Positions 3,263 to 64,000 of a DNA stretch of 64,000 bases are shown piece after piece. Source of the DNA: Torpedo marmorata (lineage: Eukaryota); NCBI GenBank assembly GCA_977017645.1, contig OZ360233.1, positions 18,166,001 to 18,230,000 of the forward strand. The letters are read 5' to 3'. A program made the position numbers and the translations under genes. A model generated the notes under the pieces. That model worked only from the letters and a program-made list of their open reading frames with translations. It did no database searches and was not told where the DNA came from. Numbering within the stretch: position 1 is the first letter of the stretch; each line of letters starts with the position of its first letter.

Positions 3263-3565
3263 CCTGAGGAAATGTTCTTGTTTTGACCTACATTCTTGTC
3301 ACTGAGCTGCAGTTACTTGATGAGTACCTGCGTACAGTTTTGGTACATTCAATATCTTGGAGAACCTCCCAGGTTTTGATGAAAATGTACAGCTGAGGCG
3401 ATGTGGTTACGTCTCTGATTGCGGAAGAAGATGTCGGGTTTCTTTGAGACAAAGATCCAGAGGGTCCACTTGACTGTCTACGGGAAGCTTGAGTCGGACT
3501 CCGCCGTGTATATCTGCGTCGTGAAGCCCACTATTCCAGACCGATATCGGGTCATTATAAAACGA
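3263..3565 (+). pseudogene. V pseudogene B1 (leader to FR1 deleted)
   Basis: 5' UTR joined directly to GTCACTGAGCTGC; frameshifts and stop; degenerate RSS CCCACTA...ATAAAACGA. Confidence 0.8.
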
Positions 3566-3596: not shown

Positions 3597-4448
3597 GCTC
3601 CTCCCACAACACATTGCGGACCAGTGCACAGGACGGAGTCGGCAACTGTGCCTCCGGGCGAGAGTCGTCTCTAAAATGCAGCGCAGAGGTTGAGCCTCGC
3701 GTGATCAACGACGTTTGTCTCACTCTCTGTTCCGAGGCGGAGGGGAGGAATTGAGAGAAAAGCGCGGAATCTGGTGGTTCACCTTTTGCGAGAGAGGGGG
3801 AGAGACAGGATCTGCTGAGAAAGGGAGTGAGCGAAAGGGTGAAAGAAATTCAGTAGAAAGAAGGTGAGGAGTGAGAGAGAGTGAATGATAGAGAGAGATC
3901 GTGATTGACGAAGAGAGATATCACAGGAGGGAGGCAGTGGGGAGGGAGTGGTAAGTAAGGAAGAGTGTGAAAATTATTTAATGAAGGAGACATTGAGAGT
4001 GCCAGAGCGGGAGAGGGACAGAGGGAATGTGTGACAGTGGGAGAAAGAGATTGAAGGGAGGGGAGCGACAGGCACTGCTCTCGAAAGATTACATAAGTGT
4101 AAGACGGAGTCGCGTAGAGGTAGGAAGCTTAACAGAACGCGAGAAGGGGCGTGAGGGTGCAGGAAAACGAGTGAAGTTGATGGAAAGGGCCGAACGAGAG
4201 AAAAGAAGTGAGAGACGTGGGGAGTGTAAATATAGGTGGAGAAACACGTCCGAAAAAGACGGAGAATGAGAAACGGCCAACATTAACAACCAGTTTTCAT
4301 TGGTTCAACAACGGCGCTCTCTTGAGCCTATGTACGAGTAGGGCGCCCTCCTGTGTGTCCCAGAGGACGGGCAGCAACTAACGAGACCCCATTGTCTGAT
4401 ATCGGGGCAGAATATGGAAATATTCGGCTGTTCACCTTCATTCTGGCT

Positions 4449-4906
4449 TCCTCACCATCCAGCAGTTTGCTGATTCTATGGGCCGTTCTATTTGGCGAGT
4501 CTCTGTCTGATAGGTCAGCGCGTGTCCCTCCCGGCTCAGCGCAATTCCTCGCATATCACACACTGCGTGTTTCATTCCAGGCACAAATGTGGAAAACTAG
4601 TGACCCACGGACAGATGGAACGGATGGCCGCGGGAAGTGTCGCTGAGCTCATGTCAGCCGAAAAAGGTTACCGTATGTTTTTGGTACATTCAAATTCCCG
4701 TGGGGACTTGGATTTATTTGCTGAAAATCTACAGCGCAGGAGATGAGGTTCCGTGTCACGATTGTCCGGACAGGATGACGGGTTCCTTGGAGAAAAGGGG
4801 CCGGATACCTTAATATCTCCAAAGCTCTTGAAGCGGACGTGGCCGTTTATGTCTGCGTGGTGCGGCTCACACTGTTCCTGGGATATTACGGAGACGCACA
4901 AAAGCT
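4449..4906 (+). pseudogene. V pseudogene C1 with retained RSS
   Basis: Leader without in-frame ATG, GC donor, frameshifted V exon; RSS 4868-4906 CACACTG-23-ACAAAAGCT. Confidence 0.8.
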
Positions 4907-5326
4907 CATTCTGAGATGGGAAGTGGTTTGAGAGAAAATGATAGAAAGAAGACGGGAGAGCGTGTTAAGGTTTGCGAAAAGTTAAGCAGGTGAAAACGTG
5001 AGACAGAGTGAGGTAGAGCAATAGAACGAAAGAAGGGGAGAGAGGGTGGAGTGAGTGAAAGCGAGGGAGGAGATACACAGATGTAAGCAGAAAGATGCGG
5101 GGAGTGTACAGATAGAGGGTGATATTTGCGTGAAGGACCGGGAACGAGATGCAGACTGTCTTATCAACTAGGTCTGATTTGTTCAATAATGGCCACTCGA
5201 ACCAATCCTGTGTGAAGGAAACACTCACATATCTGTCCTTGGCGTTGGTTCGCTCATAACATCGCCCCGCCCCTTGTATAGCGGTAACACAAAGAAATAT
5301 TCGATTTTGACCTTAATCCGCGTACC

Positions 5327-5372
5327 ATGTCCTCCCTGAGTTGTTTGCTGATTCTGTGGGCCGTTCTGACTG
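5327..5372 (+). other. Orphan/upstream leader exon L0-1
   Basis: ATG, MSSLSCLLILWAVLT+G, GTGAGT donor; no V exon of its own before D1. Confidence 0.8.
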
Positions 5373-5697
5373 GTGAGTCTGTCTGATTGGTCAGCGAAGT
5401 CTGTCCTTCGTCCTTGCTCTACGAGTCTCACTCTTTAACTTAATTAAAGGTGGACAATTTCCCCAAGTCATACCCTCTCCGTCACACGTTCTCCCACCGT
5501 TTACTCATTTACACACTCTCTGTTTACTGAACTTCCTCACGGTCGCTCTGTCGCTCTATCTCTCTCTCCCTCTGTTCTCGTGAGAGGGAAACGGCCCGCT
5601 TCTCCAACAGAGTTTCTGCTGCTTCTGACGTGAGGTTGCGCTCTTCTATCGGGCGAGCATTTTAAAATATCCTTCCTTCGAATTTAATCCGGGCATC

Positions 5698-6124
5698 ATG
5701 TTCCTCCTGAGTTGTTCGCTGATTCTATGGGCCGTTCTGCCTGGTGAGACTAATTGATCAATACGTGTCCCGCGGGGTCAGTGCCGTTTCGCGCCGTTCA
5801 CACATTCTGTCTTTTGTTACAGGGGCCAGTGGGAACAATTCAGTGACCCAAGAACCCCCGGAATTGATTGTCAACGAAGGGCAGATCGTATCACTGAGCT
5901 GCAGTTACTCGATTAATCCCGCTGCATTTGTTTTGGTACATTCAACGTCCAGGAGAATCTCCCAAATATTTGCTGAAAATCTACACGTCAGGGGATGTGG
6001 TTCCGTCTCCCGATTGTCCGGAGAGGATATCAGGTTCATTGAAGAAAAAGAGCCAGACATTCCACCTCAATAACTCGAAAACCCTTGTGGAGGATTCTGC
6101 CGTGTATCTCTGCGCCGTGAAGCT
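5698..6124 (+). pseudogene. V segment D1 (+1 frameshift near CDR1)
   Basis: Leader 5698-5743, intron 5744-5822. GCATTTGTTTTGG has one more T than D5 (GCATTGTTTTGG), possibly a homopolymer error. RSS 6125-6163 intact. Confidence 0.8.
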
Positions 6125-6454
6125 CACACTGTTCCAGGGCGGTGGCAGATCCGCACAAAAACTCACCTCGAGACATTGAATCGGACCCTATGGCTAGGGG
6201 GCGCTCTCGGCCACTCAATGGAAGCGACTACACGACCTTCCTGGAGAGTCTGCTGTAACGCCGAGATGCAGGATATTTGCCCTCCTCTGAGCGTTTCTCT
6301 TTCTCTGCGTCCTCAGTGTCTGATTCCGTAATTTGAGGTGGACGGTAGGAAGTCAGGGAGAGAGAAGGAAATGGATAGCTGTTTCCAAGAATATTGTAGG
6401 AAAAGGGAAGGAGTGTTCTTGTGATGGAAATTGAGAGATTAAAAAAAGTGGTGT

Positions 6455-8475
6455 GGGTAGGACAGGAGCGTTACCCCTCGGCCTGTCCTTCCTAAAATCA
6501 ACAAGCTCCTTGGTCTTGGTGTCATTAAGAAAAAGATTGTTTATACTCCAGGTGGAGCTACGACCCAATCCAATAACTGCGCTTTTCGGGGTTTTTGATC
6601 CTGACATAGGGAGTTTTTCTGTACCTGTTCAACGGGTTGTGGCCTTCTCTACATTGTTGGCTAGGTGAGACATCCCATTCAAATGGAAAGACTCTGGATC
6701 TCCAACAGTGGTTCAATATTTTCCTCGTAATTATGTCTTGTTTAAGCTTAGAAAAAAATTAGAAATTATGCATTGGATTCATCGGTGAAATTTTAAGATA
6801 CATGGCGACCTTTTATGTCTTATTTTCATATGATGTAAGTGTTTCTAATGTAATTAGATGTATTTACTCTTCCTTTGTTTTTTGATTTACGGTAGGAACC
6901 AAAAATTACAAAATATATATAACCTTCAGGATAAGCTGCTCAGCTGTTCTTTGTTAGTTGTTTTTTTTTTAATTAGTGTAGGTTCGGTGGTTTTTTTTAT
7001 ATATAATACTTTTGATTTTTTAAAAAATGGTCACCTATTGCAGTGGAGGGGGGATCGAATTTATACTGTTTGAAGTTTTATTTTAATATTTATAAATGTG
7101 TGATATTGTATTTTCAATTTCGTTCACTTTTCTTGATTGTATTGTATTTCTTATAAAAATAAAAATAAAAAGATTGAAAAAGAAAGATTGTTGTTCTGGA
7201 ACCACCCAACCAGGTTCTTGATTTCCATCCTGCATTCTGGCTCATCTTTTCCAGTTATTCACCCAACACTGGTGGTGTCGACATCTCATTTGTAGATTGA
7301 GTTGGAGCTGAACTTGGCTGCACAGTCATGGATGCCCATGGCATGGAGTGGGGGACAAAGCAGGCAGCCTTGGAGTGCTCCTGAGTTGATGGTCAGCGAG
7401 GAGGTGGTTGATTAACACTGTTTGGGACTGCCAAAGAGGAATTCAAAGATCCAGTCGCAGTGGGATGGACAGAGTTCTAGATCCTTCAGCTTGGTCATAG
7501 GCTTTGCAGGTATGAGGGTGTTGAACGCCGAGCTGTAGTCAATGAACAACAGCTCCACGAAGGTGTTTCGGTGGTCCAGGTGATTTAATGCAGAGTGGAG
7601 AGTCAGCGATATGACGCCGTCAGTTGACCTTTTGTGGCGATAGGTGAACTGAAGTGGGACCAGGTCCTTCCAGAGATAGGAGTAAATTCGCTCCATAATC
7701 AACCTCTGAAAACACTTCATCACAGTCGGTCAACTTGCTCTTCTTGGGCAAGTCGGGGAGGGAGGAGATTGGAAGCAAATACACACCGAAATGCCGGAGG
7801 AACACAGCCGGTCTCGCAGCGTCCATAGGAGGGACAGATATCTAACCAACGTTTCCGCCTAAGCCCTTGTTCAAGAATAAGCAAAGCTCAGGAAGGCGTC
7901 AGAATAAAAACTGACGACTGGCAGGGGCAGGAGTCCAGAATAACAGGTGTTAATTGGATATGGATGGAGGAGAAGTGAGAATTGATTTTGGCTCTGTGAA
8001 GGGAGNNNNNNNNNNNNNNNNNNNNNNNNNNNNNNNNNNNNNNNNNNNNNNNNNNNNNNNNNNNNNNNNNNNNNNNNNNNNNNNNNNNNNNNNNNNNNNN
8101 NNNNNNNNNNNNNNNNNNNNNNNNNNNNNNNNNNNNNNNNNNNNNNNNNNNNNNNNNNNNNNNNNNNNNNNNNNNNNNNCGATGGGAGGAAGAACAACGG
8201 GGGATGTAGAACGAAAAATTGAGAAGTCGATGTTAATGCCACCCGGTTGGAGGTATCCCAGACGGAAGATGAGGTGTTGTTCCTCCAATTTGCACGTGGT
8301 CACAGTCTGGCCGTGCATGAGTCCACGGACAGACATGTCCGAAAGTGAGTGGATCGGGGAATTGAAATGGGTGGCCACTGGGAGATCCACGCGATGGCGG
8401 CGGAGAGAGCCGAGGTGCTCAACAAAGCGATCTCAGAGTCTGCGCCCAGTGTCTGCGATGTAGAGGAGACAAGAG
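6455..8475. mobile_element. TE block copy: Rex1 (-) interrupted by L1 3' fragment (+), then Penelope-like fragment (-); N gap 8006-8179
   Basis: Collinear with 1-1915; Rex1 KTKELVDFRK stub precedes the L1 piece. Confidence 0.75.
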
Positions 8476-11646: not shown

Positions 11647-12063
11647 CATTCTGTGATGGGAAGTGGTTTGACAGGAAATGGATGAAAGAAGACGGCAGAG
11701 TGTTAAGGATTGCGAAAAGTTAAGCAGGTGAAAAAGTGAGACAGAGTGAGGTAGAGCAATAGAACGAAAGAAGGGGAGAGAGGGTGGAGGGAGAGAAAGG
11801 GAGGGAGGAGATACACAGATGGAAGGAGAAAGATGCGGCGAGTGTACAGATAGAGGGTGAAATTGCGTGAAGGAACGGGAACGAGTTGCAGACTGTCTTA
11901 CCAACTCGGTCTGATTGGTTCAATAATGGCCACTCGAACCAATCCTGTGGGAGGGAAACACTCACATATCTGTCCTTGCCGTTGGTTCGCTCATAACATC
12001 GCCCCGCCCCTTGTATAGCGGTAAAACAAAGAACTATTCGATTTTGATCTTAATCCGCGTACC

Positions 12064-12109
12064 ATGTCCTCCCTGAGTTGTTTGCTGATTCTGTGGGCCG
12101 TTCTGACTG
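12064..12109 (+). other. Orphan/upstream leader exon L0-2
   Basis: MSSLSCLLILWAVLT+G, GTGAGT donor. Confidence 0.8.
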
Positions 12110-12441
12110 GTGAGTCTGTCTGATTGGTCAGCGATGTCTGTCCATCGTTCTTGCTCTACGAGTCTCCCTCTTTAACTTAATTAAAGGTGGACAATTCCCC
12201 CAGGTCATACCCTCTCCGTCGTACGTTCTCCCACCGTTTACTTATTTACACACTCTCTGTTTACTGAACTTCCTCACGGTCGATCTGTCGCTCTATCTCT
12301 CTCTCTCCCTCCTCGCCGTTCTCGTTAGAGGGAAACGGCCCGTGTCTCCAACAGCCTTTCTGCTGCTTCCGTCGTGAATTTGCGCTCTTCTATGGGCGGG
12401 CATTTGTAAAATATCCTTCCTTCGAATTTAATCCGGGCGTC

Positions 12442-12867
12442 ATGTTCATCGTTTGTCCTTCGCTGATTCTATGGGCCGTTCTGCCTGGTGAGACTGATTG
12501 ATCAACACGGGTCCCGCGGGGTCAGCGGCGTTTCGCGCAGTTCACACATTCTGTCTTTTGTTCCAGGGGCCAGTGGGAACGATTCAGTGACCCAAAAACC
12601 CCCGGAATTGATTGTCAACGAAGGGCAGATCGTATCACTGAGCTGCAGTTACTCGATGAATCCCGATGCATATTCTTGGTACATTCAACGTCCTGGAGAA
12701 TCTCCCAAATATTTGCTGAAAATCTACACGTCAGGAGATGTGGTTTCGTCGCCCGATTGTCCGGAGAGGATATCGGGTTCATTGGAGAAAAAGAGCCAGA
12801 CATTCCACCTCAATAACTCGAAAACCCCTGTGGAGGATTCTGCCGTGTATCTCTGCGCCGTGAAGCT
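12442..12867 (+). CDS. V segment D2, potentially functional
   Basis: Leader 12442-12487, intron 12488-12566, open V exon to YLCAVK; RSS 12868-12906 CACACTG-23-ACAAAAACT. Confidence 0.85.
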
Positions 12868-13199
12868 CACACTGTTCCAGGGCGGTGGCAAATCCGCACA
12901 AAAACTCACCTCGAGACATTGAATCGGACCCTATGGCTAGGGGGCGCTCTCGGCCAAGCAATGGAAGCGAATACACGACCTTCCTGGAGAGTCTGCTGCA
13001 ACGCCGAGATGCAGGAGATTTCCCCTCTTCTGAGCGTTTCTCTTTCTCTGCGTCCTCTGTGTCTCATTCCGTAATTTGAGGTGGAAGGTACGAAGTCAGG
13101 GAGAGAGAAAGAAATGGATAGCTGTTTGCCAGAATATTGTATGAAAATGAAGGAGTGTTTGTTAATGGAAATGGAGAGATTAAAAAAGCGGTAAACCGC

Positions 13200-14725: not shown

Positions 14726-14771
14726 ATGTCCTCCCTGAGTTGTTTGCTGATTCTGTGGGCCGTTCTGACTG
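14726..14771 (+). other. Orphan/upstream leader exon L0-3
   Basis: MSSLSCLLILWAVLT+G, GTGAGT donor. Confidence 0.8.
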
Positions 14772-15123
14772 GTGAGTCTGTCTGATTGGTCAGCGACGTC
14801 TGTCCATCGTCCTTGCTCTACGAGTCTCACTCTTTAACTTAATTAAAGGTGGACAATTCCCCCAAGTCAAACCCTCTCCGTCGCACGTTCTCCCACCGTT
14901 TACTCATTTACTCACTCTCTGTTTACTGGACTTCCTCACGGTCGCACTGTCGCTCTATCTCTGTCGCTCTGTCTCTCTCTCTCTCTCTCGCTCCTCGCCG
15001 TTCTCGTGAGAGGGAAACGGCCCGTGTCTCCAAAAGAGTTTCTGCTGCTTCCGACGTAAATTTGCGCTCTTCTATGGGCGAGCATTTGTAAAATATCCTT
15101 CCTTCGAATTTAATCTGGGCATC

Positions 15124-15549
15124 ATGCTCCTCCTTTGTCCTTCGCTGATTCTATGGGCCGTTCTGCCTGGTGAGACTGATTGATCAATACGTGCCCCGCG
15201 GGGTCAGCGCCGTTTCGCGCTGTTCAGACATTCTGTCTTTTGTTACAGGGGCCAGTGGGAACGTTTCAGTGACCCAAGAACCCCCGGAATTGATTGTCAA
15301 CGAAGGGCAGATCGTATCACTGAGCTGCAGTTACTCGATTAATCCCGCTGCATATTTTTGGTACATTCAACGTCCTGGAGAATCTCCCAAATATTTGCTG
15401 AAAATCTACGCGTCAGGAGATGTGGTTCCGTCTCCCGATTGTCCGGAGAGGATATCGGGTTCATTGGAGAAAAAGAGCCAGAGATCCCACCTCAATAACT
15501 CGAAAACCCTTGTGGAGGATTCTGCCGTGTATCTCTGCGCCGTGAAGCT
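15124..15549 (+). CDS. V segment D3, potentially functional
   Basis: Leader 15124-15169, intron 15170-15248, open V exon; RSS 15550-15588. Confidence 0.85.
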
Positions 15550-15861
15550 CACACTGTTCCAGGGCGGTGGCAAATCCGCACAAAAACTCACCTCGAGACA
15601 TTGAATCGGACCCTATGGCTAGGGGGCGCACTCGGCCACGCAATGGAAGCGACTACACGACGTTCCTGGAGAGTCTGCTGAAAAGTGCAACGCCGAGTTG
15701 CAGGAGATTTGTCCTCCTATGAGCGTTTCTCTTTCTCTGCCTCCTCTGTGTCCGATTCCTTAGTTTGAGGTGGAAGGTGGGAAGTCAGGGAAAGAGAAAG
15801 AAATGGATAGCTGGAAAAGGGAAGTAGTGTTCTTTTGATGGAAATTGAGAGATTAAAAAAA

Positions 15862-24748: not shown

Positions 24749-24794
24749 ATGTCCTCCCTGAGTTGTTTGCTGATTCTGTGGGCCGTTCTGACTG
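24749..24794 (+). other. Orphan/upstream leader exon L0-4
   Basis: MSSLSCLLILWAVLT+G, GTGAGT donor. Confidence 0.8.
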
Positions 24795-25153
24795 GTGAGT
24801 CTGTCTGATTGGTCAGCGACGTCTGTCCATCGTCCTTGCTGTACGAGTCTCACTCTTTAACTTAATTAATGGTGCACAATTCCCCCAAGTCAAACCTTCT
24901 CCGTCGCACGTTCTCCCACCGTTTACTCATTTACACACTCTCTGTTTACTGGACTTCCTCACGGTCGCTCTGTCGCTCTATCTCTGTCGCTCTGTCTCTC
25001 TCTCTCTCTCTCTCTCTCGCTCCTCGCCGTTCTCGTGAGAGGGAAACGGCCCGTGTCTCCAAAAGAGTTTCTGCTGTTTCCGACGTGAATTTGCGCTCTT
25101 CCATCGGGCGAGGATTTGTTAAATATCCTTCCTTCGAATTTAATCCGGGCATC

Positions 25154-25579
25154 ATGTTCCTCCTTTGTCCTTCGCTGATTCTATGGGCCGTTCTGCCTGG
25201 TGAGACTGATTGATCAACACGTGTTCCGCGGGGTCAGTGCCGTTTCGCGCCGTTCACACATTCTGTCTTTTGTTCCAGGGGCCAGTGGGAACGATTCAGT
25301 GACCCAAGAACCCCCGGAATTGATTGTCAATGAAGGGCAGATCGTATCACTGAGCTGCAGTTACTCGAAAAATCCCGATGCATATTTTTGGTACATTCAA
25401 CGTCCTGGAGAATCTCCCAAATATTTGCTGAAAATCTACGCGTCAGGAGATGTGGCTCCGTCTCCCGATTGTCCGGAGAGGATATCGGGTTCATTGGAGA
25501 AAAAGAGCCAGAGATCCCACCTCAATAACTCGAAAACCCTTGTGGAGGATTCTGCCGTGTATCTCTGCGCCGTGGAGCT
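25154..25579 (+). CDS. V segment D4, potentially functional
   Basis: Leader 25154-25199, intron 25200-25278, open V exon; RSS 25580-25618. Confidence 0.85.
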
Positions 25580-26079
25580 CACACTGTTCCAGGGCGGTGG
25601 CAGATCCGCACAAAAACTCACCTCGTGACATTGAATCGGACCCTATCGCTAGGGGGCGCTCTCGGCCACGCAATGGAAGCGACTACACGACGTTTCTGGA
25701 AAGTCTTCTTAAAACTGCAACGCCGAGTTGCAGGAGATTTGTCCTCCTATGAGCGTTTCTCTTTCTCGGCCTCCTCTGTGTCCGATTCCTTAGTTTGAGG
25801 TGCAAGGTGGGAAGTCAGGGAAAGAGAAAGAAATGGATAGCTGGAAAAGGGAAGTCGTGTTCTTTTTATGGAAATTGAGAGATTAAAAAAAGTGGTAGAT
25901 GCAGGTTCAATTTTAATCTTTAAGGAAAAGTTGGATAGGTATATGGACGAGAGAGGTGTGGAGGGTTATGGGCCGGGTGCGGGTCAGTGGGACGAGGTGG
26001 GAGAATGTGTTCGGCATGGACTAGAAGCGCCGAACTGGACTGTTTCTGTGCTGTAAATGTTATATGGTTATATATGGTG

Positions 26080-29256: not shown

Positions 29257-29440
29257 TGGAGAATACAGAGAGGCGGAGAAACGCGACAAGGACGGAGAAT
29301 GGGAGACGTTCGCCATAAACTACCTGCTCAATGGTAGCGTCAACCTGACCTAACAAGAAATGCTGTGCGACAAAAACGGCCGGTGCGTCCCCCGGGGTTG
29401 GATGTTCCTGACTTCACCCCATCTCGTATATCGGGGTAAC

Positions 29441-29742
29441 ATGAGGAAATGTTCTTCTTTTGACCTACATTCGTGTCACTGAGCTGCAGTTACTTGATGA
29501 GTACCTCCGCACAGTTTTGGTACATTCAATATCCTGGATTACCTCCCAGGTTTTGATGAAAATGTACAGCTGCGGCGATGTGGTTACGTCTCAGATTGCG
29601 GAAGAAGATGTCGGGTTTCTTTGAAACAAAGACCCAGAAGGTCCACTTGACTGTCTACGGGACGCTTGAGTCGGAATCCGCCGTGTATATCTGTGTCGTG
29701 AAGCCCACTATTCCAGAGCGATGGCGGGTCCGTATAAAACGA
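29441..29742 (+). pseudogene. V pseudogene B4 (same leader-FR1 deletion as B1)
   Basis: CATTC joined to GTGTCACTGAGC; degenerate RSS. Confidence 0.8.
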
Positions 29743-31502: not shown

Positions 31503-31548
31503 ATGTCCTACCTGAGTTGTTTGCTGATTCTGTGGGCCGTTCTGACTG
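31503..31548 (+). other. Orphan/upstream leader exon L0-5
   Basis: MSYLSCLLILWAVLT+G, GTGAGT donor. Confidence 0.8.
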
Positions 31549-31874
31549 GTGAGTCTGTCTGATTGGTCAGCGACGTCTGTCCATCGTCCTTGCTCTACGA
31601 GTCTCACTCTTTAACTTAATTAAAGGTGGACAATTCCCCCAAGTCAAACCCTCTCCGTCGCACGTTCTCCCACCGTTTACTTATTTACACACTCTCTGTT
31701 TACTGAACTTACTCACGGTCGCTCTGTCGCTCTATCTCTCTCTCCTTCTGTTCTCGTGAGAGGGAAACGGCCCGTGTCTCCAACAGAGTTTCTGCTGCTT
31801 CCGACGTGAGTTTGCGCTCTTCTATCGGGCGAGCATTTGTAAAATATCCTTCCTTCGAATTTAATCCGGGCATC

Positions 31875-32300
31875 ATGTTCCTCGTTTGTCGTTCGCTGAT
31901 TCTATGGGCCGTTCTGCCTGGTGAGACTGATTGATCAACACGGGTCCCGCGGGGTCAGCGGCGTTTCGCGCAGTTCACACATTCTGTCTTTTGTTCCAGG
32001 GGCCAGTGGGAACGATTCAGTGACCCAAAAACCCCCGGAAGTGATTGTCAACGAAGGGCACATCGTATCACTGAGCTGCAGTTACTCGATTAATCCCGCT
32101 GCATTGTTTTGGTACATTCAACGTCCTGGAGAATCTCCCAAATATTTGCTGAAAATCTACACGTCAGGGGATGTGGTTCCGTCTCCCGATTGTCCGGAGC
32201 GGATATCGGGTTCATTGGAGAAAAAGAGCCAGACATTCCACCTCAATAACTCGAAAACCCGTGTGGAGGATTCTGCCGTGTATCTCTGCGCCGTGGAGCT
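31875..32300 (+). CDS. V segment D5, potentially functional
   Basis: Leader 31875-31920, intron 31921-31999, open V exon; RSS 32301-32339. Confidence 0.85.
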
Positions 32301-32629
32301 CACACTGTTCCAGGGCGGTGGCAGATACGCACAAAAACTCACCTCGAGACATTGAATAGGACCCTATGGCTAGGGGGCGCTCTCGGCCACGCAATGGAAG
32401 CGACTACACTACCTTTCTGGAGAGTCTGCTGTAACGCCGAGATGCAAGAGATTTGCCCTCCTCTGAGCGTTTCTCTTTCTCTGCCTCCTCTGTGTCTGAT
32501 TCCGTAATTTGAGGTGGAAGGTTGGAAGTCAGGGAGAGAGAAGGAAATGGATAGCTGTTTCCAAGTATATTGTAGGAAAAGGGAAGGAGTGTTCAAATGA
32601 TGGAAATTGAGAGATTAAATAAGTGTTGT

Positions 32630-37766: not shown

Positions 37767-37812
37767 ATGTCCTCCCTGAGTTGTTTGCTGATTCTGTGGG
37801 CCGTTCTGACTG
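37767..37812 (+). other. Orphan/upstream leader exon L0-6
   Basis: MSSLSCLLILWAVLT+G, GTGAGT donor. Confidence 0.8.
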
Positions 37813-38167
37813 GTGAGTCTGTCTGATTGGTCAGCGACGTCTGTCCATCGTCCTTGCTCTACGAGTCTCACTCTTTAACTTAATTAAAGGTGGACAATTC
37901 CCCCAAGTCATACCCTCTCCGTCGCATGTTCTCCCACCGTTTACTCATTTACACACTCTCTGTTTACTGAACTTCCTCACGGTCGCTCTGTCGCTCTATC
38001 TCTGTCGCTCTATCTCTCTCTCTCTCTCTCTCGCTCCTCGCCGTTCTCGTGAGAAGGAAACGGCCCGTGTCTCCAAAAGAGTTTCTGCTGCTTCCGACGT
38101 GAGTTTGCGCTCTTCTATCGGGCGGGAATTTGTAAAATATCCTTCCTTCGAATTTAATCCGGGCATC

Positions 38168-38593
38168 ATGTTCCTCCTTTGTCCTTCGCTGATTCTATGG
38201 GCCGTTCTGCCTGGTGAGACTGATTGATCAACACGTGTCCCGCGGGGTCAGTGCCGTTTCGGGCTGTTCACACATTCTGTCTTTTGTTCCAGGGGCGAGT
38301 GGGAACGGTTCAGTGACCCAAGAACCCCCGGAAGTGATTGTCAACGAAGGGCAGATCGCATCACTGAGCTGCAGTTACTCGATGAATCCCAATGCATATT
38401 TTTGGTACATTCAACGTCCTGGAGAATCTCCCAAATATTTGCTGAAACTCTACACGTCAGGAGATGTGGTTCCGTTTCCCGATTGTCCGGAGAGGATATC
38501 GGGTTCATTGGAGAAAAAGAGCCAGACATTCCACCTCAATAACTCGAAAACCCTTGTGGAGGATTCTGCCGTGTATCTCTGCGCCGTGAAGCT
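38168..38593 (+). CDS. V segment D6, potentially functional
   Basis: Leader 38168-38213, intron 38214-38292, open V exon; RSS 38594-38632. Confidence 0.85.
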
Positions 38594-39428
38594 CACACTG
38601 TTCCAGGGCGGTGGCAGATACGCACAAAAACTCACCTCGAGACTTTGAATCGGACCCTATGGCTAGGGGGCGCTCTCGGCCACGCAATGGAAGCGAATAC
38701 ACGACCTTCCTGGATAGTCTGCTGCAACGCCGAGATGCAGGAGATTTTCCCTCCTCTGAGCGTTTCTCTTTCACTGCTGCCTCTGTGTCTCATTCCGTAA
38801 TTTGAGGTGGACGGTAGGAAGTCAGGGGGAGAGGAAGAAATGGATAGCTGTTTGCCAGAATATTGTATGAAAATGAAGGAGTGTTTGTTAGATGGAAATT
38901 GAGAGATTAAAAAAGCGGTAAACCGCGCGGGTGGGTGTGACCGGTAGGTGAGCCTTCGGCCCCTCCTTCCCAAAATCAACAACAAGCTCCTTGGTCTTGG
39001 TGAAAATAAGAACAAAAGTGTTGTTCACGAACCACCAAACCAGGTTCACCATCTCCATTCTGCATTCTGACTCATCTTTTCCAGTTATTTGGCCAACACT
39101 GGTGGTGTCTTCAGCTAATGTGTCGGTTGAGATGGGGCTGAACTTGGCTGAACGGTCAATTGGTGCACATGGCAGAGATTGAAGGAAGGGAGAGATTGGA
39201 ACTGCTCTCGAAAGATTAAATAAGTGTAAGACGGAGTCGCGTAGAGGTAGGAAGCTTAACAGAACGCGTGAAGGGGCGTGAGGTTTCAGGAAAACGAGTG
39301 AAGGTGATGGAAAGGGCAGAACGAGAGAAAAGAAGAGAGAGACGTGGGGAGTGTAAATATAGGTGGAGAAATAGGTCCGAAAAAGACGGAGAATGAGAAA
39401 CGTCCAACATTAACAACCAGTTTTCATT

Positions 39429-41768: not shown

Positions 41769-42188
41769 CATTCTGAGATGGGAAGTGGTTTGAGAGAAAA
41801 TGGCATAAAGAAGACGGGAGAGCGTGTTAAGGCTTGCGAAACGTTAAGCAGGTGAAAACGTGAGACAGAGTGAGGTAGAGCAATAGAACGAAAGAAGGGG
41901 AGAGAGGGTGGAGTGAGTGAAAGGGAGGGAGGAGATACACAGATGGAAGGAAAAAGATGCGTTGAGTGTACAGATAGAGGGTGAAATGTGCGTGAAGGAC
42001 GGGGAACTAGATACAGACTGTCTTATCAACTCCGTCTGATTGGTTCAATAATGGCGACTCGAACGAATCCTGTGTGAGGGAAACACTCACATATCTGTCA
42101 TTGACGTTGATTCGCTCATAACATCGCCCCACCCCTTGTATAGCGGTAACACAAAGAAATATTCGTTTTTGACCTTAATCCGCGTACC

Positions 42189-42234
42189 ATGTCCTCCCTG
42201 AGTTGTTTGCTGATTCTGTGGGCCGTTCTGACTG
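42189..42234 (+). other. Orphan/upstream leader exon L0-7
   Basis: MSSLSCLLILWAVLT+G, GTGAGT donor. Confidence 0.8.
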
Positions 42235-42575
42235 GTGAGTCTGTCTGATTGGTCAGCGACGTCTGTCCATCGTCCTTGCTCTTCGAGTCTCCCTCTTTAA
42301 CTTAATTAAAGGTGGACAATTCCCCCAGGTCAAACCCTCTCCGTCACACGTTCTCCCACCGTTTACTCATTTACACACTCTCTGTTTACTGAACTTCCTC
42401 ACGGTCGCTCTGTCGCTCTATCTCTATCTCTCTCTGTCTCGCTCCTCGCCGTTCTCGTGAAAGAGAACCGGCTCGTGTCTCCAACAGAGTTTCTGCTGCT
42501 TCCGACGTGAGTTTGCGCTCTTCTATCGGGCGAGCATTTGTAAAATATTCTTCCTTCGAATTTAATCCGAGCATC

Positions 42576-43001
42576 ATGTTCCTCCTTAGTTGTTCGCTGA
42601 TTCTATGGGCCGTTCTGCCTGGTGAGACTGATTGATCAACACGTGTCCCGCGGGGTCAGTGCCGTTTCGCGCCGTTCACACATTCTGTCTTTTGTTCCAG
42701 GGGCAAGTGGGAACGATTCAGTGACCCAAGAACCGCTGGAATTGATTGTCAATGAAGGGCAGATCGTATCACTGAGCTGCAGTTACTCGATGAATCCCAA
42801 TGCATATTTTTGGTACATTCAACGTCCTGGAGAATCTCCCAAATATTTGCTAACAATCTACAGGTCAGGAGATGTGGTTCCGTCTCCCGATTGTCCGGAG
42901 AGGATATCGGGTTCATTGGAGAAAAAGAGCCAGACATTCCACCTCAATAACTCGAAAACCCTTGTGGAGGATTCTGCCGCGTATCTCTGCGCCGTGAAGC
43001 T
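42576..43001 (+). CDS. V segment D7, potentially functional
   Basis: Leader 42576-42621, intron 42622-42700, open V exon; RSS 43002-43040. Confidence 0.85.
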
Positions 43002-43983
43002 CACACTGTTCCAGGGCGGTGTCAGATCCGCACAAAAACTCACCTCGAGACATTGAATCGGACCCTATGGCTAGGGGGCGCACTCGGCCAAGCAATGGAA
43101 GCGAATACACGATCTTCCTAGAGAGTCTGCTGCAACGCCGAGATGCAGGAGATTTTCCCTCCTCTGAGCGTTTCTCTTTCTCTGCGTCCTCTGTGTCTCA
43201 TTCCGTAATTTGAGGTGGAAGGTAGGAAGTCAGGGAGAGAGGAAGAAATGGATAGCTGTTTGACAGAATATTGTATGAAAATGAAGGAGTGTTTGTTAGA
43301 TGGAAATTGAGAGGTTAAAAATGCTGTAAACCGCGCGGGTAGGTGTGACCGGTAGGTGATCCTTCGGCCTCTCCTTCCCAAAATCAACAACAAGCTCCTT
43401 GGTCTTGGTGAAAATAAGAACATAATTGTTGTTCTCCAACGACCAAACCAGGTTCACCATCTCCATTCTGCATTCTGACTCATCTTTTCCAGTTATTCGG
43501 CCACCACTGGTGGTGTCTTCAGCTAATGTGTCGGTTGAGTTGGGGCTGAACTTGGATGAACAGTCAATTGGTGCACATGGCAGAGATTGAAGGGAGGGAG
43601 AGATTGGCACTGCTCTCGAAAGATTAAATAAGTGTAAGACTGAGTCGCGAAGAGGTAGGAAGCGTAACAGAACGCGAGAAGGGGCGAGAGGGTGCAGGAG
43701 AACAAGTGAAAGTGATGACAGGGTGGAGCGAGAGTGAAGGAGAGGGAGACGTGGGAATGTAAATATAGGCGGAGAAACACGTGCGAAAAAGAGCGAGAAT
43801 TAGAAATGGTCAACATCAACAACCAGTTTTCGTTGGTCCAACAACGGCTTCTTATTGCGCCCACGTGCGCGGAGGGCGCCCTTCTCTCTGACCTAGACGA
43901 TGGGCTGCTACTGACGAGACCCCATGTCTGATATCGGGGCATAAATGTTGAAATGTTCGTCTGGTGATCTTCATCCCGGCTTC

Positions 43984-44924: not shown

Positions 44925-44970
44925 ATGTCCCTCCTGCGTTGTTTGCTGATTCTATGGGTTGTTCTGACTG
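44925..44970 (+). other. Diverged orphan/upstream leader exon L0'
   Basis: MSLLRCLLILWVVLT+G, GTGAGT donor. Confidence 0.8.
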
Positions 44971-45285
44971 GTGAGTCTGTCTGAGTGGTCATCGACTTCT
45001 GTCCATCGTCCTTTATCGACGTGTCTCCCTCTTTAACCTAATTAAAGTTCGGCGATTCCCCCAAGACTCACACTCCTTCGCTCACCCTCTGTTTACTCAT
45101 TTAAGATTTCACTTTGTGCTCACTTAACTCACTCGCGCGGTCTCTCCCGCACTCCCGCTCTCGCCCCTCGCCGCTCTCGTGCCAGGGAAACGACCAGAGG
45201 TTCTTCTGCTTCCGACGTGCGCTGGCGAACATATGTCGGGCGAGCATTTGTAAAATATCTTTCTTTCGCATTTAGGCCGGGCACC

Positions 45286-45711
45286 ATGTTTCTCCTGAGT
45301 TTTTGGCTGATTCTATCGGCCATTCTGCCTGGTGAGACTCGTTGGTCAACACGTGACGTGCTGGATCAGCGCCGTTCCGCGCCATTCACACATTCTGTGT
45401 TTTGTTCCAGGGGCGAGTGGGAACGATTCCGTGACCTAAACACCTCCGGAATTGAGCATCGACGGAGAGCAGATCGTATCACTGAGCTGCATTTACTCGA
45501 TGAGTCCCTTCGCATATTTTTGGTACATTCAACGTCCTGGAGACTCTCCCAAATATATGCTGAAGATCTTCACGTCGGGAGATGTGGCTCTGTCTCACGA
45601 TTGTTCGGAGATGATATCGGCTTCCTTGGAGAAAAAGAGCCAGAGATTCCATCTCAAAATCTCAGAAACCCGCGAGGAGGATTCCGCCGTTTATCTCTGC
45701 GCCGTGGAGCT
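45286..45711 (+). pseudogene. Diverged V segment D' (nonsense in FR1)
   Basis: Leader 45286-45331, intron 45332-45410; CAA>TAA at 45437-45439; RSS 45712-45750 intact. Confidence 0.85.
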
Positions 45712-46019
45712 CACACTGTTCCAGGGCGGTGGCGGATCCGCACAAAAACTCACCTCGAGAATTTCCATCGCTCGCTGTGGCCAGCGGGCGCACTCGGGCA
45801 CCGGCAGCCAGTTCTGTCGGTCAGTGCACTGGAAGCGTCAACACGACCTTCCTGGAGAGTCTGCTGAAAACGGCAAAACCGAGTTGCAGGAGATTTGCCC
45901 TCCTCTGAGCGTTTCTCTTACTCTGCCTCCTCTGTGTCAGATTCCTTACTTTGAGGTGGAAGGTAGCAAGCCAGGGAAAGAGAAGGAGTGTTCTTGTGAT
46001 GGAAATTGTGAGATTAATA

Positions 46020-52638: not shown

Positions 52639-53061
52639 ATATTCCTCCTGAGTAGTTGGCTGATTCTATGGGCCGTTCTGCCTGGTGAGACTGATTGACA
52701 ACTCATTTTGCGTGGATTCATGGCCATCCAGCGCCGTTCACACATTCTGTGTTGTTCCAGGGGCGAGTGGGAACGATGCAGTGACCCAAAGACCGCCGGC
52801 ACTGATAGTCGATGAAGGGCAGATCGTATCACTGATCTGCAGTTACTCGATGAGTGCCGAGGCATATTTCTGGTACATTCAACGTCCCGGAGAATCAACA
52901 AAATATTTGCTAAAAATTTACACGTCAGGAGATGTGGTTCAGTCTCACGATTTTCCGGAGAGGATATCGGGTTCCTTGGATAAACAGAGCCAGAGATTCC
53001 ACCTCAATATCTCAAAAACCTGTGAGGAGGATTCCGCCGTGTATCACTGCGCTGTGGTTTT
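52639..53061 (+). CDS. Diverged V segment D'': open V exon, proximal leader start lost (ATA)
   Basis: ATA at 52639; exon 52761-53061 open to VYHCAVV; RSS 53062-53100 CACTCTG-23-ATAAAAACT. Confidence 0.7.
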
Positions 53062-58102: not shown

Positions 58103-58249
58103 TCCTCACCATCCAGTAGTTTGCTGATTCTTTGGGCCGTTCTGCTTGGCGAGTCTTTGTCTGATTGGTCAGCGCGTGTCCCTCCCGGCTCAGCGCAATT
58201 CCTCACATATCACACTGTTTCTGGGATATTGCGGAGACGCACAAAAGTT
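58103..58249 (+). pseudogene. C8 relic: V exon deleted, RSS retained
   Basis: Intron ...CATAT joined to RSS 58211-58249 CACACTG-23-ACAAAAGTT. Confidence 0.8.
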
Positions 58250-58669
58250 CATTTTGAGATGGGAAGTGGTTTGAGAGAAAACGGCAGAAAGAAGACGGGA
58301 GAGCGTGTTAAGTATTGCGAAAAGTTAAGCAGGTGAAAACGTGAGACAGAGTGAGGTAGATAAATAGAACGAAAGAAGGGGAGTGAGAGTGGATTCACTG
58401 AAAGGGAGGGAGGAGATACACAGCTGGAAGGAGAAAGATGCGGGGAATGTACAGATAGAGTGTGCAATATGCGTGAACGACGGGGAATGATATGCAGACT
58501 GTCTTATCAACTCGTTCTGATTGGTTCACGAATGGCCACACGAACCAATCCTGTGTGAGGGAAACACTCACATATCTGTCCTTGCCGTTGGTTCGCTCAT
58601 AATATCGCCCCACCCCTTGTATAGCGGTAACACAAAGTAATATTCGATTTTGACCTTAAACCGCGTACC

Positions 58670-58715
58670 ATGTCCTCCCTGAGTTGTTTGCTGATTCTGT
58701 GGGCCGTTCTGACTG
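58670..58715 (+). other. Orphan/upstream leader exon L0-8
   Basis: MSSLSCLLILWAVLT+G, GTGAGT donor. Confidence 0.8.
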
Positions 58716-59050
58716 GTGAGTCTGTCTGATTGGTCAGCGACGTCTGTCCATCGTCCTTGCTCTACGAGTCTCCCTCTTTAACTTAATAAAAGGTAGAGAA
58801 TTCCCCCAAGTCATACCCTCTCCGTCGCACGTTCTCCCACCGTTTACTCATTTACACACTCTCTGTTTAATGAACTTCCTCACGGTCGCTCTGTCGATCT
58901 ATCTCTCTCTCTCTCGCTCCTCGCCGTTCTCGTGAGAGGGAAACGGCCCGTGTCTCCAACAAAGTGTCTGCTGCTGCCGACGTGAATTTGCGCCCTTCTA
59001 TCGGGCGAACATTTGTAAAATATCCTTCCTTCGAATTTAATCCACGCATC

Positions 59051-59476
59051 ATGTTCCTCCTTAGTTGTTATCTGATTCTATGGGCCGTTCTGCCTTGTGA
59101 GACTGATTGATCAACACGTGTCCCGCTGGGTCAGCGGCGTTTCGCGCCGTTCACACATTCTGTCTTTTGTTCCAGGGGCGAGTGGGAACGATTCGGTGAC
59201 CCAAGAACCCCCGGAATTGATTGTCAATGAAGGACAGATCGTATCACTGAGCTGCAGTTACTCGATGAATCCCAATGCATATTTCTGGTACATTCAACGT
59301 CCTGGAGAATCTCCCAAATATTTGCTGAAAATCTATGCGTCAGGAGATGTGGTTCCGTCGCTCGATTGTCCGGAGAGGATAACGGGTTCATTGGAGAAAA
59401 AGAGCCAGACATTCCACCTCAATAACTCGAAAACCCGTGTGGAGGATTCTGCCGTGTATCTCTGCGCCGTGGAGCT
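59051..59476 (+). CDS. V segment D8, potentially functional
   Basis: Leader 59051-59096 (donor T|GTGAGA), intron 59097-59175, open V exon; RSS 59477-59515. Confidence 0.8.
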
Positions 59477-59965
59477 CACACTGTTCCAGGGCGGTGGCAG
59501 ATCCGCACAAAAACTCATCTCGAGACATTGAACCGGACCCTATGGCTAGGGGGCGCTCTCGGCCACGCAATGGAAGCGAATACACGACCTTCCTGGAGAG
59601 TCTGCTGCAACGCCGAGATGCAGGAGATTTCCCCTCCTCTGAGCGTTTCTCTTTCTCTGCGTCCTCTGTGTCTGATGCCGTAATTTGATGTAGAAGGTAG
59701 GAAGTCACGGAGAGAGGAAGAAACGGATAGCTGTTTGCCAGAATGAAAATGAAGGAGTGTTTGTTAGATGGAAATTGAGAGGTTAAAAAAGCGGTAAACC
59801 GCGCGGGTGGGTGTGACCGGTAGGTGATCCTTCGGCCTCTCCTTCCCAAAATCAACAACAAGCTCCTTGGTCTTGGCGAAAATAAGAACAAAATTATTGT
59901 TCTCCAACCACGAAGCCAGGTTCACCATCTCCATTCTGCATTCTGACTCATCTTTTCCAATTATT

Positions 59966-62045: not shown

Positions 62046-62192
62046 TCCTCACCATCCAGTAGTTTGCTGATTCTTTGGGCCGTTCTGCTTGGCGAGTCTT
62101 TGTCTGATTGGTCAGCGCGTGTCCCTCCCGGCTCAGCGCAATTCCTCACATATCACACTGTTTCTGGGATATTGCGGAGACGCACAAAAGTT
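62046..62192 (+). pseudogene. C9 relic: V exon deleted, RSS retained
   Basis: Same junction as C8; RSS 62154-62192. Confidence 0.8.
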
Positions 62193-62612
62193 CATTTTGA
62201 GATGGGAAGTGGTTTGAGAGAAAACGGCAGAAAGAAGACGGGAGAGCGTGTTAAGTATTGCGGAAAGTTAAGCAGGTGAAAACGTGAGACAGAGTGAGGT
62301 AGATAAATAGAACGAAAGAAGGGGAGTGAGAGTGGATTCTCTGAAAGGGAGGGAGGAGATACACAGCTGGAAGGAGAAAGATGCGGGGAATGTACAGATA
62401 GAGGGTGCAATATGCGTGAAGGACGGGGAATGATATGCAGACTGTCTTATCAACTCGTTCTGATTGGTTCACGAATGGCCACACGAACCAATCCTGTGTG
62501 AGGGAAACACTCACATATCTGTCCTTGCCGTTGGTTCGCTCATAATATCGCCCCACCCCTTGTATAGCGGTAACACAAAGTAATATTCGATTTTGACCTT
62601 AATCCGCGTACC

Positions 62613-62658
62613 ATGTCCTCCCTGAGTTGTTTGCTGATTCTGTGGGCCGTTCTGACTG
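62613..62658 (+). other. Orphan/upstream leader exon L0-9
   Basis: MSSLSCLLILWAVLT+G, GTGAGT donor. Confidence 0.8.
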
Positions 62659-62993
62659 GTGAGTCTGTCTGATTGGTCAGCGACGTCTGTCCATCGTCCT
62701 TGCTCTACGAGTCTCCCTCTTTAACTTAATAAAAGGTATACGATTCCCCCGAGTCATACCCTCTCCGTCGCACGTTCTCCCACCGTTTACTCATTTACAC
62801 ACTCTCTGTTTAATGAACTTCCTCACGGTCGCTCTGTCGATCTATCTCTCTCTCTCTCGCTCCTCGCCGTTCTCGTGAGAGGGAAACGGCCCGTGTCTCC
62901 AACAAAATGTCTGCTGCTGCCGACGTGAATTTGCGCTCTTCTATCGGGCGAACATTTGTAAAATATCCTTCCTTCGAATTTATTCCACGCATC

Positions 62994-63419
62994 ATGTTCC
63001 TCTTTAGTTGTTATCTGATTCTATGGGCCGTTCTGCCTTGTGGGACTGATTGATCAACACGTGTCCCGCGGGGTCAGCGGCGTTTCGCGCCGTTCACACA
63101 TTCTGTCTTTTGTTCCAGGGGCGAGTGGGAACGATTCAGTGACCCAAGAACCCCCGGAACTGATTGTCAATGAAGGACAGATCGTATCACTGAGCTGCAG
63201 TTACTCAATGGTTCCCAATGCATATTTCTGGTACATTCAACGTCCTGGAGAATCTCCCAAATATTTGCTGAAAATCTATGCGTCAGGAGATGTGGTTCCG
63301 TCGCTCGATTGTCCGGAGAGGATATCGGGTTCATTGGACAAAAAGAGCCAGACATTCCACCTCAATAACTCGAAAACCCTTGTGGAGGATTCTGCCGCGT
63401 ATCTCTGCGCCGTGGAGCT
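62994..63419 (+). CDS. V segment D9, potentially functional (weak proximal donor)
   Basis: Leader 62994-63039 (donor T|GTGGGA), intron 63040-63118, open V exon; RSS 63420-63458. Confidence 0.78.
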
Positions 63420-64000
63420 CACACTGTTCCAGGGCGGTGGCAGATCCGCACAAAAACTCACCTCGAGACATTGAATCGGACCCTATGGCTAGGGGGCGCT
63501 CTCGGCCACGCATGGAAGCGAATACACGACCTTCCTGGAGAGTCTGCTGCAACGCCGAGATGCAGGAGATTTTCCCTCCTCTGAGCGTTTCTCTTTCACT
63601 GCTGCCTCTGTGTCTCATTCCGTAATTTGAGGTGGACGGTAGGAAGTCAGGGGGAGAGGAAGAAATGGATAGCTGTTTGCCAGAATATTGTATGAAAATG
63701 AAGGAGTGTTTGTTAGATGGAAATTGAGAAATTAAAAAAGCGGTAAACCGCGCGGGTGGGTGTGACCGGTAGGTGATCCTTCGGCCTCTCCTTCCCAAAA
63801 TCAACAACAAGCTCCTTGGTCTTGGTGAAAATAAGAACATAATTGTTGTTCTCGAACCACCAAACCAGGTTCACCATCTCCATTCTGCATTCTGACTCAT
63901 CTTTTCCAGTTATTTGGCCAACACTGGTGGTGTCTTCAGCTAATGTGTCGGTTGAGTTGGGGCTGAACTAGGCTGAACGGTCAATTGGTGCACATGGCAG

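Follow-up and report, generated by a model that had tools for sequence, protein, structure and literature searches.

A V array whose D family has two leaders

The window analysed here is a stretch of 64,000 nucleotides of the Torpedo marmorata contig OZ360233.1 (C45; positions 18166001-18230000), from a 6.2-Gb genome with many dispersed clusters of Ig constant exons; Ig C1 clusters are also found on the window's contig, at 22-29 Mb. The region is a one-strand V array with 23-spacer RSS, ~430 kb of which consists of tandem A-B-C-D units. Across 464 kb we count 110 forward 23-spacer RSS and no J-type RSS. Within 864 kb around the window no J or C segments are found, and a PF09291 search yields nothing over the cut-off. 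The D V exon matches Pfam V-set (E 1.8e-14), with the Cys, Trp, Cys and the Y-x-C-A end present, and 52 of the 55 D V exons are open with C/W/C. Its 33 matches comprise five named TCR alpha or alpha/delta V, two 'immunoglobulin iota chain-like' entries and otherwise generic names, and among PDB structures a TCR alpha-beta single chain gives the best match in a single stretch. The nearest named relative is the skate model XP_055487445.1, with 49% over two V stretches; protein searches returned no D-family orthologue or cDNA in other species, the best identity being 49%. In elasmobranchs, according to PMC12227049, IgH clusters are linked to TCR alpha/delta. The locus is likely an alpha/delta-type TCR V array whose constant region would lie outside the 864 kb covered.

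At ~18.21-18.45 Mb of the contig there are higher-order repeats, in blocks of ~25-34 kb and ~83 kb, with near-identical D copies (e.g. at 41823, 66645, 91438 and 125640 in window coordinates) that reflect very recent duplication or assembly duplication. A reverse-strand retroelement-like coding fragment, recognised by eye at 661-1200 and 7197-7740 of the window, is repeated in each unit spacer. Dozens of near-identical C1-set exons at 22-34 Mb of G000:C79 and on many small contigs represent a very large recent expansion of Ig clusters.

As the first-pass annotation had described, every D unit of the window (11 of 11) holds a 46-nt ATG...GT exon ~360-405 nt upstream of the proximal leader and without a V exon of its own. 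We refer to this second phase-1 leader as L0 and to the leader in the normal position as L1. The features of one unit, followed by the other ten units, are as follows (window coordinates).

5175..5222 (+): distal module of the L0 promoter, with an ATTGG box (ATTTG in this copy), CCAAT and GGAAA
5327..5372 (+): L0, the upstream leader exon of 46 nt in phase 1, MSSLSCLLILWAVLT, with the donor GTGAGT
5400..5580 (unstranded): filler between the leaders, limits approximate; contains no V remnant and resembles, when inverted, the GA-rich DNA that precedes B-family promoters
5581..5697 (+): what is left of a truncated L1 promoter, namely GAGGGAAA, GACGTG and an AT-rich 5' UTR, without the CCAAT module
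5698..5743 (+): L1, the proximal leader exon of 46 nt, with the donor GTGAGA and followed by a 79-nt intron
5823..6124 (+): D-family V exon of 302 nt, a pseudogene copy in which one extra base shifts the frame
6125..6163 (+): 23-spacer RSS (CACACTG / ACAAAAACT)
12064..12906 (+): D unit; L0 12064-12109, L1 12442-12487, open V 12567-12867, RSS
14726..15588 (+): D unit; L0 14726-14771, L1 15124-15169, open V 15249-15549
24749..25618 (+): D unit; L0 24749-24794, L1 25154-25199, open V 25279-25579
31503..32339 (+): D unit; L0 31503-31548, L1 31875-31920, open V 32000-32300
37767..38632 (+): D unit; L0 37767-37812, L1 38168-38213, open V 38293-38593
42189..43040 (+): D unit; L0 42189-42234, L1 42576-42621, open V 42701-43001
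44925..45750 (+): unit of the D2 sub-lineage; L0 44925-44970, L1 45286-45331, V 45411-45711 with a stop codon
52271..53100 (+): unit of the D3 sub-lineage; L0 52271-52316 (GTGCGT), L1 52639-52684 (ATA in place of ATG), open V beginning at 52761, variant RSS
58670..59515 (+): D unit; L0 58670-58715, L1 59051-59096 (CTT|GTGAGA), open V 59176-59476
62613..63458 (+): D unit; L0 62613-62658, L1 62994-63039 (CTT|GTGGGA), open V 63119-63419

Some units are less complete than the annotation had implied. The unit at 5170-6163, its exemplar, does have two leaders, but the V exon is not intact (302 nt, frameshifted); that of the 44925 unit, again behind both leaders, carries a stop, and an ATG opens L1 in 10 of the 11 window units only, the L1 of the 52271 unit starting with ATA.

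The same arrangement accompanies all 55 D V exons in 464 kb of this contig's putative alpha/delta-type V array. From the ATG of L0 to that of L1 the distance is 361-405 nt in the window and 336-411 nt over the 55 copies, and the introns measure 412-490 nt from L0 and 76-79 nt from L1; the D acceptor is joined in frame (phase 1) by L0 and by L1 alike. The donors of L0 are GTGAGT (44), GTGCGT (10) and GTGGGT (1), those of L1 GTGAGA (53) and GTGGGA (2). Between L0 and the D exon the window units contain no V exon, RSS, D or J, and no V remnant is detected between the leaders (with V, intron and downstream targets z does not exceed 2.3). A second homologous leader is absent from the A-family units and from 30 of 30 open V exons further downstream, so the two-leader pattern is not a matter of chance; the downstream scan flagged two of these 30, one for an alternative donor located 12 nt into the same intron, the other for an unrelated ATG..GT 815 nt upstream. 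Unlike D, family A, family F and the families further downstream have a single leader, and the leader intron of the other families in the locus is 83-85 nt long.

Promoters of the two leaders

The two leaders are preceded by different promoter sequences, in which we take the ATTGG/CCAAT, TGACGT and TATA words as putative NF-Y, CRE and TATA elements. Over the 55 copies, the L0 promoter contains ATTGG in 47, CCAAT in 47, at least one of the two in 54 and a TATA-like word in 41; TGACG occurs there in none. The L1 region contains a CCAAT/ATTGG word in one copy, TGACGT in one, TATA in four and GGAAA in 47. Family A promoters have CCAAT in 27 of 27 and TGACGT in 25 of 27. The ATTGG...CCAATC-type module is common to A, F, L0 and, in part, C; it is undetected at 14 open V exons of a distant family at 18.66-18.78 Mb and is thus not locus-wide. 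At L1 this distal module is missing, promoter homology beginning at TG(C/T)GAGGGAAA, immediately downstream of the CCAAT box. The earlier statement that the proximal leader keeps only the GACGT/AT-rich part was right as to the loss of the CCAAT module (54 of 55) and too narrow in its 'only', given that GGAAA is kept in 47 of 55; the GACGT is indeed there, but it is of the CGACGT type, with a full TGACGT in 1 of 55.

Which leader starts the D transcript?

As to which of the two leaders is used, the answer that we rank first, and hold tentatively, is that L0 has taken over as the working start and L1 is mostly a relic; the use of L0 and its splicing to the D exon are favoured. An old rearrangement would have removed the CCAAT half of the D gene's own promoter and, in the same event, placed an intact paralogous promoter and leader ~400 nt upstream of L1. 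Transcription would then start at the fuller L0 promoter, and L0 would splice over L1, across 412-490 nt, to V, leaving L1 in the intron; the arrangement later multiplied with the A-B-C-D unit to 55 copies. A leader intron of such length appears feasible, as another V of the locus has a candidate one of 495 nt. Transcription from L0, the L0-to-V splice and a reduced use of L1 are what we infer from the genomic DNA.

Disabling changes are distributed asymmetrically between the leaders. The ATG, open frame and GT of L0 are intact in 55 of 55 copies, whereas L1 is open in 46 and dead in nine (Fisher p 0.003 for copies that are not independent). L1 died by loss of its ATG or gain of a stop, which on the tree amount to two ATG losses and two stop gains, and in eight of the nine L1-dead copies the V exon behind it is open. 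At L0 we find no disabling change, whereas the rate of the flanks, CpG sites apart, would predict ~6 (P 0.003), and 3.6 in the main clade (P 0.03). Among the 37 main-clade copies, parsimony places 8 changes in L0 and 35 in L1, with 7 against 18 distinct variants (p 0.04). L0 lies below all 1754 overlapping 46-nt control windows (median 33), which equal about 38 independent windows in copies that are themselves not independent, and L1 lies at the median; with CpG sites removed L0 is still near the bottom (0.1-0.6%). D V exons are open in 52 of 55 copies against 18 of 27 in family A, with a dN/dS of about 0.6 (p 0.002). Because the D V exons thus look maintained, some leader should be working.

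Low variation in this array need not mean function, however, since a dead C-family leader without ATG and with a GC donor is nearly as invariant as L0 (13 changes, 2.5th percentile, ratio 0.40); the same test gives 10 changes for purine-rich windows near 11721. If the rate is that of the dead C leader, the lack of disabling changes in L0 is unremarkable. The family A leader is a weak positive control, its ratio of 0.40 resting on a poorly aligned downstream flank and rising to ~0.75 against the upstream flank alone. Changes in L0 comprise 19 nonsynonymous and 6 synonymous overall (7 and 1 in the main clade), so there is no protein-level dN/dS signal at L0, its synonymous sites being as depleted as the rest; such even depletion fits homogenisation or low mutability, and selection on the signal peptide would not predict it. 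Whether L0 diverges at the neutral rate of its flanks, a point raised by the first-pass annotation, has two answers: among the 37 recent copies L0 varies at 0.26-0.33 of the flank rate, but between the three old sub-lineages it is at the flank rate. Divergence between sub-lineages is 0.132 for L0, 0.134 for L1, 0.149 for the dead C leader, 0.150 for V and 0.121 and 0.150 for the flanks, with 0.245 for the filler and 0.287 for the L1 intron. The L1-dead copies may be decaying whole, as all nine also carry a variant RSS (6 of 46 among the others); seven of the nine have the GTGCGT donor at L0. In D2 the trend is reversed, in small numbers, with 8 changes in L0 (7 of them singletons) against 2 in L1, and the TATA-like word at L0 is lost in 8 of 8 copies.

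The C family shows a pattern of its own. All 29 main-clade C genes (window 4410-4910 and 28 others) lack both the leader ATG and the GT donor, GC standing in its place in 26. Their leader and intron vary ~3 times less than the C V exon, and the first 25 bases of the intron differ by only 0.03 between old sub-lineages, possibly through conversion among leader introns.

The first-pass annotation had proposed that both leaders are used, with dual promoters and dual signal peptides. We do not favour this over replacement of L1 by L0, because in the main clade L1 changes as fast as neutral sequence, and nine of the 55 copies have a dead L1. Appreciable use of both, whether from two promoters or with two donors competing on transcripts from the L0 promoter, is possible though doubtful. 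For it speak the state of L1, whose GT is kept in 55 of 55 copies, which is open in 46 and which has no indels and one change in six donor bases, and the divergence of both leaders between sub-lineages, far below that of the filler and the L1 intron (0.13 against 0.25-0.29). The changes in L1 are clustered in bases 1-21 (30 of 35), its 3' half and GT being about as conserved as those of L0. Moreover, the mouse makes both TRBV13-2 forms (bioRxiv 10.64898/2026.01.30.702900). Against it stand, in addition to the neutral rate, the two losses of the ATG, the two gained stops and the cut-down promoter of L1.

Leaders and donors were compared by hydrophobicity and by U1 pairing energies. GTGAGA had been called the weaker donor, and in U1 pairing it is (CTG|GTGAGA -8.1, CTG|GTGAGT -9.2 kcal/mol), but the two pair nearly as well, which suits dual use, and GTGAGA is not disabling: it serves a single-leader open V at 18588577 of the contig. 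GTGCGT likewise serves two single-leader open V exons, and we rejected donor strength as proof of leader choice on account of these genes. In five copies the L1 donor is weakened to CTT|GT (-4.4 and -3.6 kcal/mol), which argues against dual use. The L1 peptides are the less hydrophobic, and in 22 of the 37 copies of the main clade their residue 6 is Pro or Arg. If the L1 donor were used on a transcript started at L0, the L0 ATG would open an upstream frame of 19 codons (3 of 3 copies checked), so that translation of L1 would depend on reinitiation or leaky scanning; in this way both leaders could serve with a single promoter. We also considered a cassette exon, from L0 to a cryptic AG and reading through L1, and dismissed it, since it is in-frame and open with a pyrimidine tract in 3 of 55 copies only. 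Signal-peptide cleavage sites are placed by the -3/-1 rule. The predicted site, Ala-Ser-Gly, falls within the V exon, and both leaders would supply only the start of the signal peptide; given that both are in frame, the mature chain is predicted to be identical whichever leader is used.

A related scheme combines several of these elements: a dual-leader family fixed in the germline, its second promoter and leader captured from a lost neighbour, with both routes active and the sub-lineages settling on different leaders (D1 and D3 on L0, D2 on L1), so that transcription and rearrangement would have two independently regulated entries. As a whole we consider it rather doubtful.

Alternatively, L0 may be a silent orphan, the 5' remnant of a deleted V gene that tandem duplication has carried along, and D would be expressed from L1. 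Remnants with only the 5' or only the 3' part of a V gene are routine in TRA/D loci, as PMC8656973 indicates for catfish, and this array has other truncated genes (C exons of ~44 nt, B leaders deleted). The spacing from L1 to V is normal, the dead C leader is similarly invariant, and L0 is at the flank rate between sub-lineages. An orphan does not account, however, for an L0 intact in 55 of 55 copies, for a promoter that is fuller at L0 than at L1, or for the open V behind eight dead L1, and we judge this reading unlikely. That neither leader is much used, the D genes being a recently expanded, poorly expressed set kept intact by youth, is very improbable: each promoter does lack a family A element (TGACG at L0; CCAAT and TGACGT at L1), but V is open in 52 of 55 copies, with a dN/dS of 0.6, compared with 18 of 27 open in family A, which was duplicated along with D.

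Age and origin of the upstream leader

Three sub-lineages, with 37, 8 and 10 members, make up the 55 copies, and their V exons are ~15% apart. As both leaders are present in all three, the two-leader arrangement arose once, before the sub-lineages split; it is older than they are and was later amplified to 55 copies. The L0 and L1 blocks form separate, well-supported clades, as distinct from each other as are families A, B and C. In the best tree, which leaves out one long-branch row (F422278), L0 groups with B and C (support 88/88). This fits the proposal of the first-pass annotation that L0 is left from a deleted V gene, but an old duplication of promoter and leader is also compatible, given p-AU values of 0.114 and 0.393 for L0 and L1 as one clade.

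Beyond ~25-30 nt from its donor the L0 intron is no longer homologous to other leader introns and gives way to a filler of 170-190 nt without V similarity. In reverse complement the filler resembles GA-rich DNA upstream of B promoters, with z-scores of 2.1-6.1 in 12 of 12 comparisons (against dinucleotide shuffles, with three main-clade B as targets). This resemblance suggests a deletion with inversion, with the caveat that the DNA is of low complexity. A clean inversion between intron GATTGGTCA and promoter TGACCAATC was rejected, the breakpoints misfitting by eye. No candidate for the parent gene, that is, an L0-type leader with its own V exon, is present in the 864 kb around the window, and all scored genome matches to the L0 block (40 of 111 candidates scored) and to the filler (40 of 54) lie within the array.

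Other deletions are seen nearby. At 58210-58253 and 62153-62196 of the window, and in copies downstream, the C V exon is cut to ~44 nt, which leaves a V-less C leader just upstream of L0, a second and recent deletion of the kind proposed for L0. In two B units (3265-3297 and 29440-29473) the leader and intron are deleted and the 5' UTR runs into the V exon.

Comparison with known systems and significance

The mouse case of a leader shared between V genes was reportedly first described in 1987, for Vbeta5.1/Vbeta8.2. In bioRxiv 10.64898/2026.01.30.702900, the TRBV12-2 leader (L-PART1) is spliced to the TRBV13-2 V exon; of 69,248 transcripts initially attributed to TRBV13-2, 46,029 have the upstream leader. 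As in that pair, a D-family V exon has its own leader and an upstream paralogous leader in the same phase, and a functional precedent for upstream-leader use is thereby already known. Unlike L0, which has no V exon, the mouse upstream leader belongs to a complete V gene; its use is seen in RNA, whereas that of L0 is predicted from genomic sequence, in an arrangement fixed in 55 germline copies at a putative alpha/delta-type locus of a cartilaginous fish. Within the literature covered, that outside subscription journals, a search for a double-leader V family yielded the mouse TRBV case and no other.

The dual leaders of the D family are a real, old and amplified oddity; a history of promoter replacement is plausible, and the sequence evidence leans towards L0. 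Which segments become accessible to rearrangement is determined by V promoters. If true, the D family would be a half-finished promoter swap, its 55 copies a natural experiment on which elements, the CCAAT module or the CRE, a shark TCR V needs. The effect would be regulatory, gene switching being altered and the receptor protein predicted to be unchanged. Annotation by the nearest leader would call nine D genes dead and, if L0 is the working leader, give the wrong first exon for the remaining copies; leader-based repertoire primers would miss the D family.

In NAR-TCR the supporting V is not known to have a leader. A NAR-TCR-like double domain was rejected for the D family, and its protein has one V domain, since no V, D, J or RSS lies between L0 and the D exon. 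The likeness to this shark TCR (PMC5931798) is that an exon further upstream is spliced to a V exon; the upstream part in NAR-TCR is, unlike L0, a second rearranged V domain. With the 5' V remnants of channel catfish TRA/D (PMC8656973), L0 would share the character of a partial V gene left by deletion inside a V array, but it differs from them in being in frame with the next V exon, near enough to be spliced to it, and intact in all 55 copies.

In other respects the family resembles ordinary cartilaginous-fish TRAV/TRDV (skate XP_055487445.1; nurse shark), with a V-set domain, a 46-nt phase-1 leader and a 23-RSS in a tandem V array that shares its contig with clusters of Ig constant exons. The primer motifs QEGEII and DSAVYH are given for nurse shark TcR alpha V5 in PMC5931798, and the match of the D family to V5 is one of short motifs only. 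At 18636155 and 18825857 of the contig we find a divergent V family whose end, YYCALS, is similar to the motif DAAVYY of nurse shark alpha V4; the candidate leader intron of 495 nt belongs to one of its members.
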